A DNA stretch of 62,699 nt from Shigella phage POCJ13. Of this stretch, positions 24,001-30,000 are shown one piece after another. Within the stretch, counting starts at the first letter, position 1. Each line of letters starts with the position of its first letter. The DNA is taken from the sequence record KJ603229. One strand, given 5' to 3'. Position numbers: made by a program.

Positions 24001-27000
24001 ATGCGGAGGGAACCGGAGGTAAGGCTGTGAAGGTGACCAAGGAAGCCGGTAAAAGCAGCTGGGTGCTGGAGTACGCTGCAGGCAACGGTGCGGCTCTGTT
24101 ACAGAAAGGGGGGCAGATTCGCTGCCGCTTTAAGGCTTCGGGAGCGCTGGCTGCGAACCAGTATGTTATGGCGTTTTACTGGCCGGTATCGTCACTGCCA
24201 CAGGGCGTTGTCCTGACCGGCGATGGGGGGAATAACCTGCTGGCAGCGTTCTACATCCAGACGGATGCAAAAGACCTGAATGTGATGTACCACAATGCGA
24301 AAGTGGCGACAAACAACCTGAAACTGGGAAGCTTTGGCGCATTTGATAACGAATGGCATACGCTGGCTTTCCGCTTTGCCGGGAATAACAGCCTTCAGGT
24401 GACGCCGGTTATTGATGGTCAGGATGGCACACCGTTCACGCTGACGCAGTCACCGGTCAGTGCATTTTCGGCGGATAAGTTGCATGTGACAGACATTACC
24501 AAAAGTGCGACTTACCCGGTACTGATAGACAGCATTGCGGTGGAAGTGAATAACGCGGACGCCGCTGCATGATAAAAAAAGCCGCCAGTTACCGGAATGG
24601 ACTGGCGGTGGTAATACCTATGGAGAAAAAATAAAGGAACGATACTTTCGTACTCTGTTTTTTTAAATGAAAACAGTTCTTATTGTCAACAATAACGGAA
24701 AGAAATTATGACATTTCTGAACCAGTTAATGCTGTACTTCTGTACGGTGGTCTGTGTGCTGTATCTCCTTTCGGGTGGATACCGGGCCATGCGTGACTTC
24801 TGGCGCAGACAGATTGACAAAAGGGCCGCTGAGAAAATCAGCGCCAGTCAGTCAGCCGGAAGCAAACCCGAAGAGCCGCTCGTTTAGCGGCAACTTTCTT
24901 AATCACACCTTTCGACGAGAAAATCCCATGTCAGAAATTACATCCCTGGTCACTGCTGAAGCAGTGAAGGACGTCCTGCGCTCTGAAGAAGTCCTGAGCG
25001 CACTGAAACAGAAACTTCGCCATAACCTGGAAGCGCGTCTTGATGCAGAAGTGGATGCCATTCTGGATGAACTGCTGGGCGCACCGGCAGCTCCGGAGCC
25101 GGAAGGCATCGCGGGAGAGGGGAGTGCTTCAGATAGCGGTGACCCCACACCTGACAGCGACATGATGATGTAAGCATGCGTCAGGGACCATCGGTGTGTG
25201 CCGGTGGTCTTTTTTATTGTTGTGAGCTTCCGGATTGCGGGAGGCGGGGTATGTACCAGATGGAAAAAATCACAACAGGTGTGTCATACACCACGTCAGC
25301 GGTGGGAACGGGCTACTGGTTCCTGCAGTTGCTGGACAGGGTTTCCCCGTCTCAGTGGGCGGCAATAGGCGTGCTGGGGAGTCTGCTGTTTGGTCTGCTG
25401 ACGTACCTGACGAACCTGTATTTCAAAATCAGAGAGGACCGGCGTAAGGCGGCGCGGGGAGAGTAAGCTGATGAGCCGGAAATTCCGCTATGGTTTATCA
25501 GCTGTCGTTCTGGCGCTGATTGCCGCAGGGGCTTCTGCGCCTGAAATCCTGGATCAGTTTCTGGATGAAAAAGAAGGTAACCACACCACGGCATACCGTG
25601 ATGGTGCGGGGATCTGGACCATCTGCCGTGGAGCCACCCGGGTGGATGGTAAGCCTGTGATTCCTGGCATGAAGCTGTCGAAGGAAAAATGCGACCGGGT
25701 TAACGCTATCGAACGGGATAAGGCGCTGGCATGGGTGGAGAAAAACATCAAAGTGCCACTGACTGAACCCCAGAAAGCGGGTATTGCGTCATTCTGTCCT
25801 TACAACATTGGCCCGGGTAAGTGTTTCCCGTCGACGTTTTATAAACGAATTAATGCAGGAGATCGAAAAGGTGCCTGCGAAGCGATTCGCTGGTGGATTA
25901 AGGACGGTGGCAGGGACTGCCGTATTCGCTCAAATAACTGTTATGGTCAGGTATCCCGTCGTGACCAGGAGAGCGCGCTGGCGTGCTGGGGAATCGACAG
26001 ATAAGCAGAATATTTTGCTGATAAATGACGCTTGCTCACGCGGGCGGATAACACGAAATCCTGCGAACTGGCAAAATGCAAGTGAATAAAGTCAGGAAGA
26101 TTGTTTTACGCAGAGGCACCGTAATGGTGTCTTTGTCATTTCTGCGCTTCGCACAAGCGTAAATAAACCAAAGAACCTTTCAGGATGAGCCCTGGTGGAT
26201 AACCGGCAGTGGTCTGGTTAACCCTCTTTGGGCTGGTTATTCCTGTGCGCAGGGTTCATCACTAAAAGGAAATAACCGATGAATATGATGACCGTGCCGT
26301 TTCACGGCGATTCTCTTTATGTGGTTAACCATAATGGCGAACCGTATGTTCCAATGAAACCGATCGTTGAAGGGGTGGGGCTGGACTGGAAAACACAGTA
26401 TCGCAAGTTAAAACAACGGTTTAATAGCTGCATGGTCGAAATGACCATTCAGCTACCAGGTGATACCCAACGTCGCCCTGTTATCTGCCTGGCTTTACGT
26501 AAACTTGCTGGCTGGCTTCAGACTATCAGCCCAAATAAGGTTAAGCTCAAAATCCGAGACAAGGTGATCCAGTATCAGGAAGAGTGCGACGATGTTCTCT
26601 ATGAATACTGGACGAAGGGTTTTGTCGTTAATCCCCGTCGAATGAGTGTGATGGAAGAACTCAATCAGGCTTGCGCTGACATGAAACGGGATAAAAACAT
26701 TGCCAGTGTGTTTGCTACCGGGCTGAATGAGTGGAAACAGGTTAAAGCCGCGCATGTATCAAAAATCCGCACATTGATAAACGAAGCGAATCTGCTGATT
26801 GATTTTGTCCTGGCTGATACAGGCAAAGGGAAAATAACAAAGGCGGATTGATGGAGTGGTGGCTAATGATATCGGATAAACTCATAACGCTGGCGAAGAT
26901 CCTCTGTGTAATCGTCGGCATTTCATTTTTAGTCATGCTGGTTGCCATTTTCTTTTCCACCGCCTGGAGAGTCCTGACGTTATCGGGACTGGTGGGGTGA

Positions 27001-30000
27001 AAGAGAGATGAACCGTGTTCTGTGTGTGGTGATTATTGTCCTGGCGGTTGGCTGTGGTGCGCTTAGTCTGGGGCTGAATCATTACCGTGATAACGCCATC
27101 GCCTACAAAGAGCAGCGCGATAAAGCCACATCCATCATCGATGATATGCAGAAGCGGCAACGTGATGTAGCAGAACTTGACGCCAGATACACAAAGGAGC
27201 TTGCTGATGCTAATGCGACTATCGAAAGTCTCCGTGCTGATGTTTCTGCTGGTCGTAAGCGCCTGCAAGTCGCCGCCACCTGTGCAAAGTCAACGACCGG
27301 AGCCAGCAGCATGGGCGATGGAGAAAGCCCAGGACTTACAGCAGATGCTGAACTCAATTATTACCGTCTCAGAAGTGGAATCGACAAGATAACCGCGCAG
27401 GTTAACTACCTGCAGGAATACATCAGGACGCAATGCCTGAAATAATTTTTTTGCAAATCACAAAGTCCATTTAATGAGCCCCGCGATGCGGGGCTTTTTT
27501 ATGTCCGCAGTAAACGCGCTTCACACGCGCGACTTATGAACACAGAACCTTTCAGGATGACCCTTGAGGATGCCGGTTTGGTGATCGGTGCCTTTCTGTG
27601 GGCCGGAATCCTGTGTGACAAGGTTCATCACTTAAAGGTGTGCACTGATGAATTATCCAACTATCGTTAACGGCATCGATTTTCGAGATCTGATTTTTGT
27701 GGCAAACAACGATCCGGTTACAGATTCTTTTATGGTGGCAAAAGCATTTGGAAAGCTGCCGAAGAACGTAGTTCGTGACATTGAACGAACCATAGAAGCT
27801 TGCCCTCCTGAGTTTGATACAAAGCTCAACTTTGAGCTTTGCTATAAAAACAATGAGTTACAGAATGGTAAGCCGCAAAAATTCTACCGTCTCCGCAAGG
27901 ATGGGTTGATGCTTTTGGTTATGTCCTACACCAAAAAAGAAGCAATGCGTATCAAAATTGCTTACATCAACGCATTTAACTGGATGTACGCCATGCTTCA
28001 GGTTGGTCATCGTCAATTTGAAGAAGAGAGAAATGCCGTAATGCTGGAGTACATGAAAGAGAAGGATGTTGCCAGCATGTCAGGTCGCCTGCTAAATCGC
28101 TGGGGCAAAATTAAGAAGCCACAGCTGCTGGCTAGAATTGAACGCCTTGAACAGCACGGGCAAACCGTAATCCCCGGACTCATCAATTAACGGCAGTACC
28201 GCGAAACAACCCAAGCCAGTAAGTGGGGAAATAACACTGGCAGCCACTGAAAGATGAACCTCCAGCCTTATGGCAAAAAAGATTCTTTGTGGTGGCGGAC
28301 TGATGGAAAGACATCGGTTATTGCAGAGGCCATTCAATGAGTGGTCTTGACAATGGCTTATACCCTACACGGGATAACTTAATTGATATCCTTTTTAACG
28401 GATAAAGGCATTTCAGCCTGACATAGCCATGCGCCGCATCGTCGCCGTATTCCCGCATTAACAGAGACCGCAGCCACCTTATCTGCGTGAGTGTGCGGGG
28501 ATAATCAAAAACGATGCACACCGGGTTTTCTCATTTTTCACGAGATGGGAGCGATTTCCCGCGAAGCCGCCTGTCCGGTGCGGTGGTGGAAGAAACCTGA
28601 TAAAACAACCGCATTGTGCAAATATCGATCAAATATGGTGCTGCTGTGTGAAATCTGAAAAATCACAGCGGTCATTATGCATCAGTTTTTAACACAGGAC
28701 GTCAGAACGTGACATGGCAAAGCTGGACTGGAAAAAGCTGGAGCAGGCATTCCGACGCGAACATGCCGAAACGGGAATAACATTACTGGACTGGTGCCGG
28801 AAGAAAAAGATTAATTACAACACCGCCAGAACCCGTATAAAAATGGGCAAAATCGATCATGAAATTGATCATAAAACCGATCATGAAATCGATCATGACA
28901 TCTCAGATGAAGAACCCTGCAATGACGCGGGTTCCGGCGATGAAAAATGCGCAAAAAACTCTGAAAAAAACTGCGCAAATTCGGCAGAAACGAAACGGAT
29001 TCGTGGTTCCCGACTTTTACCTCCTTCAAACGCTTTTTCTCAGCGAAACACCCACGCCGTAAGACACCGTGGATATGCGAAGTATCTTGAGGCAGATAAC
29101 CTCATGGATGATGCGTCCGACATGGTGCTGTTCGATGAACTGGTGTTCACCCGGGCCCGCGCACTTTCAGTAACTAAGGCACTTAAAGGGATGTTCGCCG
29201 ACCTGGAAGAGGCAACTGACGTGGAAACCCGTGTTGCTCTTTACGACAAAATACTCAAAGCTGAACAGGCCCTTGACCGGAATATTGCCCGTATCGAGTC
29301 AATTGAACGCTCATTGCTGACGCTGGACGTCCTGGCTGAGACAGCACCAAAACTTCGTGCTGACCGGGAAAGAATCAACGCCGCCAGAGATAAACTCAGA
29401 GCTGAAACCGATATTCTGACCAGCCAGCGTCGGGGCGTTGTTACGCCTGTCAGTGACATCGTGTCATCGCTGCATGAAATGAGTAATTCGGGGAGACTGG
29501 ATGACATTCCGGAAGAATGAACCGCGATGTGATGAGCCGTCAGAAATGACCGAGGCTGAACAACGTCTGTTCATCATGACTAAACTGAGCAATCCCTGGT
29601 GGCGGCTCAATCATCTCTACAAAATACAGAACGAAAAAGGTGAACTGGTCACCTTCAGAATGCGACCGGCGCAGCGCCAGTTGTTCCGGAGCATGCACAA
29701 TAAAAATATTATCCTGAAAGCGCGCCAGCTGGGATTTTCCACAGCCATTGATATTTATCTTCTCGACCAGGCATTATTCATTCCGCATCTCAAATGCGGG
29801 ATCGTCGCTCAGGATAAACAGGCTGCCAGTGAAATTTTCCGCACAAAAATTGCTGTACCGTTTGATCATCTCCCTGACTGGCTGAGAGCCTCATTCACCA
29901 TCGTTGAACGTCGTAGCGGTGCCAGCGGTGGCTATATCCTGTTTGGGCACGGCTCGAGTATCCAGGTGGCAACCTCATTCCGTTCAGGTACGGTGCAGCG

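Follow-up and report, generated by a model that had tools for sequence, protein, structure and literature searches.

Why should two different regulator genes of one prophage be preceded by the same leader? The question arises in the late region of a 933W-like or Shiga toxin (Stx) phage-like lambdoid prophage, Shigella phage POCJ13 (record KJ603229; 62,699 nucleotides (nt), analysed whole and called the window below), where one gene for a P22-Ant-like protein and another for a Rha-family protein stand among the lysis genes. A first-pass annotation had proposed that both genes share a leader of about 100 nt, the 5′ segment of which can pair with the 3′ segment and so hide the ribosome-binding site. 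We propose that the two leaders are copies of a structured segment of sense mRNA, about 155 nt long, that probably serves as a lock in cis on the translation of accessory genes in antiterminated operons. Shared post-transcriptional, that is translational, control of the two genes appears to be the most economical reading, since pairing of the Shine-Dalgarno sequence (SD) is kept by covariation and the same leader stands before at least nine unrelated gene families.

That the two leaders have common ends, as the first-pass annotation had stated, was readily confirmed. GAACCTTTCAGGATGA occurs exactly at 26173-26188 and 27545-27560, and GGTTCATCACTWAAAGG at 26253-26269 and 27622-27638, its 3′ end lying 9 nt before the ATG codons at 26279 and 27648. 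With up to three mismatches allowed, GAACCTTTCAGGATGA is found five times in the window, where 0.6 occurrences would be expected; the three inexact ones, at 5206, 18891 and 43817, were rejected as extra copies, being unrelated coding sequence. Pairwise alignment of the leaders gives 78% column identity, with identical ends and a diverged middle. By structure prediction the + strand of each forms a long imperfect hairpin in which CCUUU pairs with AAAGG, with energies of −43.1 kcal/mol (z −4.0) for copy 1 and −36.0 kcal/mol (z −1.5) for copy 2; the folds of the − strands are weaker by about 5-6 kcal/mol. Searched with a covariance model derived from relatives, the window yields exactly two sites, 27498-27651 (143 bits) and 26124-26282 (109 bits). 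The leader as first delimited was thus correct in kind and too narrow in extent, the conserved element beginning some 30-60 nt further upstream.

Alignment of 75 and then 44 representative sequences brought out three further conserved features, a hairpin (H), a terminator and long-range complementarities, and it is these parts, the complementarities forming two pseudoknot helices, that the original description had missed while correctly recognising the pairing of the leader ends (helix P1). From 5′ to 3′ the element consists of the terminator, about 20 nt, hairpin H, a spacer of 8-17 nt, the strand P0a, a long hairpin of helices P1, P2 and P3, and the SD, which forms part of the 3′ base of P1 and is followed after 7-11 nt by the AUG. 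H is a small GC hairpin 8-17 nt upstream of the leader, and its loop pairs with a bulge (J) in the 3′ strand between P2 and P1 to give helix K. In the second pseudoknot helix, P0, the 7 nt directly 5′ of CCUUU (P0a) pair with a conserved segment of the apical junction (P0b). Some junction nucleotides are invariant, for example GGGC after P0b. The parts of the two window copies, with the 5′ and 3′ strands of P1-P3 marked a and b, are:

26114-26141, + strand: copy 1, terminator-like hairpin AGGCACC-loop-GGUGUCU with an interrupted U tract, read from the sequence, just after lysozyme gene R; other phages carry GGCACCGTAATGGTGCCTTTGTCATTT at this position
26145-26159, + strand: copy 1, hairpin H, stem CGCUU/AAGCG; its loop CGCAC (26150-26154) is the 5′ strand of K
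26168-26174, + strand: copy 1, P0a, CCAAAGA, partner of P0b at 26225-26231
26176-26194, + strand: copy 1, P1a, the anti-SD strand, CCUUUCAGGAUGAGCCCUG
26197-26206, + strand: copy 1, P2a/P3a, GGAUAACCGG, partner at 26233-26242
26225-26231, + strand: copy 1, P0b, UCUUUGG, in the apical junction and followed by invariant GGC
26233-26242, + strand: copy 1, P3b/P2b, CUGGUUAUUC
26245-26249, + strand: copy 1, bulge J, GUGCG, the 3′ strand of K, complementary to the H loop CGCAC
26250-26269, + strand: copy 1, P1b, CAGGGUUCAUCACUAAAAGG, holding the SD AAAGG at 26265-26269
27476-27503, + strand: copy 2, strong Rho-independent terminator, a 9-bp stem plus UUUUUUAU, after Rz
27515-27531, + strand: copy 2, hairpin H, stem CGCGC/GCGCG; the UCACAC part of its loop UUCACAC (27520-27526) pairs with J
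27541-27547, + strand: copy 2, P0a, CACAGAA, partner at 27594-27600
27548-27566, + strand: copy 2, P1a, the anti-SD strand, CCUUUCAGGAUGACCCUUG
27567-27576, + strand: copy 2, P2a (AGGAU) and P3a (CCGG)
27594-27600, + strand: copy 2, P0b, UUCUGUG
27603-27612, + strand: copy 2, P3b (CCGG) and P2b (AUCCU)
27613-27618, + strand: copy 2, bulge J, GUGUGA, the 3′ strand of K
27619-27638, + strand: copy 2, P1b, CAAGGUUCAUCACUUAAAGG, holding the SD AAAGG at 27634-27638

A strict terminator-like site, separated from H by a median of 20 nt, precedes the element in 57 of 86 distinct upstream contexts (66%, against 6% of random windows). Within leader 2, where it might serve as a transcription attenuator or intrinsic terminator, the proximal apical hairpin with the following CCUUUCUGUG was also flagged as terminator-like; its U tract is poor, coincides with the P0b strand and is not U-rich in other types.

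Two copies on the same strand, 1.37 kb apart, could have been left by a recent local duplication in the prophage, or resemble each other by chance, and a simple duplication was the explanation that the first-pass annotation had set against its own. We see next to no chance of either. The 933W-type leader of many Stx phages matches copy 1 at 100% identity, and the leader of phage P13374 matches copy 2 at 99%, as against 78% identity between the neighbours. Their flanks, and the N-terminal domains encoded behind them, are unrelated. The two copies differ, moreover, in K (CGCAC/GUGCG in one, UCACAC/GUGUGA in the other) and in P0 (CCAAAGA/UCUUUGG and CACAGAA/UUCUGUG), and each is internally matched.

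The evidence that carries the structure comes from relatives. The covariance model, which covers the nested helices H, P1, P2 and P3 and leaves P0 unmodelled, gave 93 matches in 80 loci, tandem copies being common. RNAalifold on a plain MAFFT alignment recovered only 18 pairs, and since indels were misplaced there, pair statistics were taken on the covariance-model alignment, with 87 distinct rows. Over the 39 pairs counted, 92% of cells are paired, as opposed to 26-53% with slid partners, a percentage that is inflated for P1-P3 and H by the fitting of this nested part of the alignment to the model; both sides have changed in 27 of the 39, and none of 500 shuffles reached the observed values. 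The outer pairs of P1 are paired in 100% of rows, and compensatory change is seen in three of the five pairs of the H stem. For P0, which lies outside the alignment model, 93% of cells are paired, with compensatory change in four of seven pairs. Thus the pairing of the 5′ segment with the SD-bearing 3′ segment, proposed from a single phage, is both predicted by folding and kept through compensatory changes in 87 distinct relatives, altered SD and anti-SD strands included. The latter come from divergent second copies (11 of the 93 matches), which lack the text-pattern match described below and in which the SD/anti-SD and most of P1 are altered yet still paired, with variants such as AGGAG and UAAGGA.

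Helix K was counted without an alignment, since counting by columns fails where the bulge moves in register, by 1-2 nt, from one type to another. At least five contiguous Watson-Crick pairs are found in 82 of the 87 sequences, and their distance to the end of the SD is always 24-27 nt; when the 17 loop/bulge versions were mixed and matched, the mean match was 5.4 nt with a version's own partner and 3.35 nt with those of others. At least ten matched sequence versions exist for K and for P0 alike. Those of K include UCACAC/GUGUGA, UCUCAC/GUGAGA, UCGCAC/GUGCGA, CGCAC/GUGCG, CGCUC/GAGCG, CGCCC/GGGCG, UGCCC/GGGCA and CCGCA/UGCGG; those of P0 include CACAGAA/UUCUGUG, CCAAAGA/UCUUUGG, CUCAGAA/UUCUGAG, CCAAGAA/UUCUUGG, CCACAGAG/CUCUGUGG, CGCAGAG/CUCUGCG, CAGAGAG/CUCUCUG, CCACCGA/UCGGUGG and CCAUAGA/UCUAUGG. 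What RNA biology gains is a well-supported leader of about 150 nt with two pseudoknots, whose tertiary helices come in natural matched variants.

Does this structure belong to RNA or to DNA? Many cells of the alignment are G-U or U-G on the + strand, where the − strand would have A-C mismatches, and these frequent G-U pairs, together with the better + strand energies, assign the structure to the sense mRNA strand. A DNA hairpin recombination site of the integron attC kind, or another structure at the DNA level, was rejected on the dependence on G-U pairs, the weaker − strand folds and the constant co-orientation with the downstream open reading frame (ORF). The leader might still be a module boundary, a patch of homology through which lambdoid phages exchange cassettes, with no function as RNA. 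Very different genes do follow the same leader, recombinant leaders exist (one locus, L067, joins a 933W-type 5′ flank to a Sakai-type body), and conservation extends through the first two codons. Such a patch predicts plain conservation, however, and not strand-specific compensation in five helices, G-U pairs and matched loop/bulge pairs, and we hold it to be very unlikely as the explanation of the element, of which it may be an added consequence. That the element is an independent gene for a trans-acting small RNA would fit its strong structure and intergenic position; it is hardly credible given that the element has no promoter-like site upstream and no terminator at its 3′ end, which is the SD of the next gene.

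How widely is the element distributed, and in what company? BLAST with either leader matched more than 300 phage records, among them Stx1 and Stx2 phages, Salmonella ST64B, ST104 and SPN9CC and phages of Klebsiella, in which the following genes are annotated as Ant, Rha, KilA-N or "transcriptional regulator". The conserved ends, written as a text pattern, were found in at least 120 viral contigs and gave 24 genuine matches among bacterial genomes, taken one per species. All 24 are Enterobacterales, the genera represented being Salmonella, Citrobacter, Enterobacter, Raoultella, Siccibacter, Pseudescherichia, Entomohabitans, Pantoea, Erwinia, Serratia, Edwardsiella, Providencia and Arsenophonus, along with Yersinia pestis. 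Another 21 text-pattern matches, in other phyla, were set aside as chance, having neither terminator, H nor P0 and scoring at most 14 bits by the model. Two tiny contigs, from Kocuria sabuli (NZ_JAVHZE010000077.1, L135, 700 bp) and Xanthomonas pisi (NZ_JPLE01000286.1, L154, 392 bp), carry leaders identical to the Klebsiella and 933W types (105 and 109 bits) and are most likely assembly contamination. Among 5,426 complete E. coli genomes, 951 (about 18%) hold the element, at a median of two and up to eight places per genome, and no RNA feature is annotated at these sites. Plasmid records with the element are rare (14).

In the window, as in P22, phi80, ST64B and ST104, the element follows R or Rz in the late operon. 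The genes around the two copies are:

25176-25466: holin
25471-26004: lysozyme R
26279-26851, + strand: gene behind leader 1, 190 amino acids, P22_AR_N (E 9e-44) and ORF11CD3, inserted between R and Rz
26848-27000: hydrophobic ORF of 50 amino acids, overlapping the stop of the ant-like gene and preceding Rz
27008-27445: Rz/Rz1
27648-28190, + strand: gene behind leader 2, 180 amino acids, Phage_pRha (E 2e-21) and ORF11CD3 (E 5e-26), between Rz and the terminase genes
3′ of the Rha/ORF11CD3 gene: terminase genes

The small hydrophobic ORF accompanies the ant cassette in related Stx phages, as a hypothetical protein (ORF53 in P13803). The two regulator proteins of the window have unrelated N-terminal DNA-binding domains, P22_AR_N and Phage_pRha, and a common C-terminal ORF11CD3 domain, which is an example of the domain shuffling known for this class. 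Across all loci at least nine gene families follow the leader, P22_AR_N, Phage_pRha, KilA-N (with or without P63C), ANT, AntA, HNH_3 and TerB-like being among their domains. Q, lysis and terminase genes invariably run in the same direction as the element: an upstream marker lies on the same strand in 50 of 93 instances and on the opposite strand in none. What is shown of the element is its structure, its conservation, the strand and position that it occupies, and that it does not depend on the identity of the gene downstream.

In Klebsiella phages the element instead lies between Q and an STnc100-like pR′ RNA, within the N-antiterminated early-right operon. In two such loci, L005 (element 2461-2608, STnc100-like RNA 3239-3427) and L006, the cassette is a TerB-like gene of 141 amino acids upstream of the late promoter. 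Because the element is found in late and in N-antiterminated operons, what its sites have in common is a place just behind a terminator in operons that terminator-resistant polymerase transcribes. Beyond the terminator, the upstream sequences of 98 contexts show no relation to one another; tRNA genes, Rz, R and Q are among them. No sigma-70-like promoter was found before either window copy, and by eye no −10 or −35 is conserved across types. A leader peptide was considered and rejected: the 44-codon ORF 27536-27670, which starts in the spacer between H and P0a and spans leader 2 into rha, has its ATG replaced by CTG in ST104 and ST64B and absent in other types, and internal ATG or GTG frames in the leader stop after five or six codons.

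What, then, might the element do? Most likely it controls the translation of antirepressor-type accessory genes. The SD lies within a covarying helix of the sense strand directly before the start codon, as in a leader that sequesters its SD in cis, and freeing it would cost 6.7-7.2 kcal/mol in the two window copies. In the mechanism that we propose, transcripts made by terminator-resistant (Q- or N-modified) RNA polymerase would carry a fold that keeps the SD inside P1, and this burial would leave the accessory and often toxic DNA-binding gene (of Ant, Rha, KilA-N or HNH type) untranslated or little translated until P1 is opened in some way. The trigger for this might be a ligand, a protein, cleavage by RNase III or a host factor dependent on integration host factor (IHF). 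In lysogens, the terminator may provide a second lock. If the proposal is correct, P22, phi80 and the 933W-type Stx phages carry an unrecognised family of structured RNA that governs shuffled genes of antirepressor type, a class for which regulation and role are mostly unexplained, with a bearing on how late-expressed antirepressors are silenced in lysogens and hence on prophage cross-induction and Stx release.

Translational repression in cis and the need for a relieving event are what we infer, and besides the inflated pairing percentages of the nested helices several considerations weigh against the lock. Repression is a prediction from SD pairing, and the triggers are candidates. Next to the SD, P1 is short (5+2 bp, about 7 kcal/mol) and may for that reason tune translation and not switch it. 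Simple helix geometry also bars P0 from forming beside a straight P1-P3 rod, because the linkers measure 0 nt to P1a and 2 nt to P3b. Either the RNA folds back, or P0 and K belong to an alternative state, and the picture of a lock would then be incomplete. We favour, on geometric grounds, a compact fold in which P2-P3-P0 packs back along P1, all helices coexist and the SD end of P1 would be clamped, because K and P0 use only nucleotides left unpaired in the rod and P1 (about 18 bp) is about as long as P2, P3 and P0 together (about 17 bp).

The alternative state would make the element a two-state kinetic switch: K, P0 and the apical hairpin would form first and leave the SD open, and the P1-P3 rod would be the final, closed state, allowing each transcript a brief period of translation, much as delayed folding opens a window for translation of the MS2 maturation gene. 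K, P0 and the apical hairpin together form one nested set, which crosses H, P1, P2 and P3; the P0 strands are transcribed before P3b, P2b and P1b; and in all main types two segments, one proximal and one distal, are available as partners of P3a. Enforcing P0 yields a predicted nested fold that also contains K and places the SD in a loop, at a cost of only 8-9 kcal/mol over the minimum free energy. We nevertheless think a kinetic switch unlikely. Restriction to nucleotides unpaired in the rod is the usual signature of tertiary contacts and not of competing helices; the helix lengths fit coexistence in a folded-back form, as far as geometry can tell; and unconstrained folds of the nascent chain give P0 only after bulge J has been transcribed, in copy 2 only and never in copy 1. 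The duplex of about 23 bp formed by P1 and P2 also raises the idea of a site for RNase III, or another RNase, that cuts the mRNAs of cassettes out of the lengthy antiterminated transcript, SD pairing being incidental or relieved by cleavage as in the lambda N leader. The duplex is long and nearly continuous, with small bulges, and it lies inside very long polycistronic phage transcripts; RNase III, however, would need neither the elaborate K and P0 contacts nor a fixed placement of the SD at the base of P1, and we consider a processing or stability element quite improbable.

Returning to the translational lock, its nearest counterparts are to be found among phage leaders. In T4-type phages, hairpins sequester the SD of gene e, soc, I-TevI and mobE until RNase III, or a late promoter located within the hairpin, brings relief. 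They too hide the SD of a non-essential or toxic gene on read-through transcripts, and HNH genes are also found behind the element; the T4-type hairpins are simple and local, whereas the element spans about 155 nt, has two extra long-range helices and forms a single family for many gene types. Pseudoknotted riboswitches and protein-binding leaders resemble it in having multiple helices, pseudoknots, invariant junction nucleotides and the SD in the closing helix. Five covarying helices including two pseudoknots, with invariant junction residues, fit a riboswitch without being specific to one; the cargo here (DNA-binding, HNH, TerB-like) gives no metabolic clue to a ligand, and no Rfam riboswitch matches. 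An RNA thermometer of the ROSE or fourU kind was rejected, the whole hairpin amounting to −36 to −43 kcal/mol at 37 °C with no ROSE or fourU match in Rfam; some thermal contribution is conceivable, the SD-proximal segment alone taking about 7 kcal/mol to open.

The closest analogue is the isrK-orf45-anrP locus of Gifsy-1, where a translationally silent structured leader before an antirepressor-like gene beside Q is opened by a short RNA (PMC4825925). A structured leader and a terminator just upstream are common to the two, as may be alternative RNA structures that decide ribosome binding. The Gifsy-1 system differs in requiring a 45-codon upstream ORF and IsrK RNA in trans, while our element has no conserved upstream ORF, promoter or small RNA body. 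A trans-activated leader of this type was accordingly rejected, for the terminator is present but the upstream sequences are unrelated and no promoter-like site is seen; so was homology to the Gifsy-1 locus, where covariance model R1 finds no copy, Rfam IsrK being likewise without a match in the window. Gifsy-1 (L177) does have a weak 11-bit match downstream of anrP, at 1810-1894 on the − strand, which resembles a truncated remnant with H, P0a and the start of P1a and the interior deleted. Antisense control of antirepressor translation is established for the sar RNA of P22 and for the c4 RNA of P1 and P7 with its a′/b′ target sites (PMC12197685). There, as proposed here, control is post-transcriptional and acts at the ribosome-binding site of an antirepressor gene, but through a separate antisense RNA, whereas in the element the occluding strand is part of the same leader, and neither c4, its target nor sar gives a score. 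In Stx phage Phi24B a 24B_1 site has been predicted inside the d_ant ORF, with no description of the leader (PMC4426718); d_ant is the ant that Stx phages carry downstream of R, the same gene position as that of the leader 1 cargo. The account of HnrS (PMC13502914) gives no position relating HnrS to the element.

Searches for known RNA families were negative at the element. With Rfam 15 at the gathering threshold, the window contains only STnc100 and sRNA-Xcc1, both elsewhere; at E ≤10 over 25950-27750 there are only weak, terminator-driven matches, none of them over a leader; and no family covers the element in ten related loci. IsrK, c4 antisense RNAs and targets, sar, STnc100 and the riboswitch and ribozyme families of Rfam all gave no match at the element, and the leader sequence was not found in the literature searched. 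Judged by sequence and predicted fold, the element is best classed as a new, previously uncatalogued family of structured cis-regulatory leader with an unusual double-pseudoknot architecture.

Two possible partners in trans were examined. The STnc100-like pR′ RNA was rejected, since its interaction energy of −79.7 kcal/mol is that of shuffles (−80.7 ± 6.7 kcal/mol). The other, CATCCTGAAAGGTT at 18892-18905 on the + strand, within a rusA-like ORF (18674-19036), is complementary, over all of its 14 nt, to the anti-SD strand AACCUUUCAGGAUG that both leaders contain. It is the only long complement of the leader in the window, with about 0.05-0.2 expected by chance, and it encodes the RusA motif N-I-L-K-G-L; upstream of the element it recurs in only two other fetched loci (L030 and L105). 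It is probably a coincidence, which could in principle act in trans as an "anti-anti-SD".

Could the element report the state of the host or phage? A more ambitious and tentative proposal, which we regard as possible though doubtful, is that it is a signal-responsive riboregulator, a riboswitch-like or protein-sensing double-pseudoknot RNA that across lambdoid prophages of the Enterobacterales would tie antirepressor, Rha, KilA and HNH cassettes to that state. Stx phages, P22 and phi80 would then have an unseen post-transcriptional checkpoint in lytic development. A candidate input is an IHF-dependent signal, which would explain an old phenotype of rha. The element precedes rha in phi80 (86.9 bits) and in P22 (58.8 bits), with matching K and P0 pairs in both, and these are the genes that defined rha and are known for an IHF-dependent phenotype; in the phi80 record rha carries the annotation "DNA synthesis inhibition in IHF- hosts". 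If the reading of the element as a translational lock is right, there is here a definite starting point for explaining why Rha is harmful to phage growth only where the host is deficient in IHF. By eye, no match to the IHF consensus WATCAANNNNTTR was seen in the two leaders.

The same comparison bears on annotation. In phi80 (L174) rha is annotated to start at 43739, and the SD-proximal AUG is at 43775, 12 codons downstream; in P22 (L175) the annotated start is 1576, and the SD-proximal in-frame AUG is at 1645, 23 codons downstream. Because the annotated codons sit inside the leader and the conserved SD precedes the later AUGs, both Rha N-termini are probably over-extended, and rha start codons that are likely misassigned in reference genomes can be corrected. 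A second, shortened copy in phi80, at 45221-45355 (52.7 bits), precedes PHI80_66, which is similar to N15 gp59; its apical domain and P0b are largely deleted.

Other RNA features of the window lie apart from the element. A full-length STnc100 (RF02076, 195 bits), which is the pR′/tR′-type short RNA of the late promoter, occupies 22206-22419 on the + strand and is directly followed by a YjhS/NanS-like ORF of 646 amino acids (22632-24572). Because there is no room for stxAB at its usual site, this appears to be a 933W-like prophage without toxin genes there. Matches to sRNA-Xcc1 (RF02221) lie at 16920-17003 on the + strand (79.6 bits) and at 61769-61854 and 62305-62389 on the − strand (74.5 and 53 bits).

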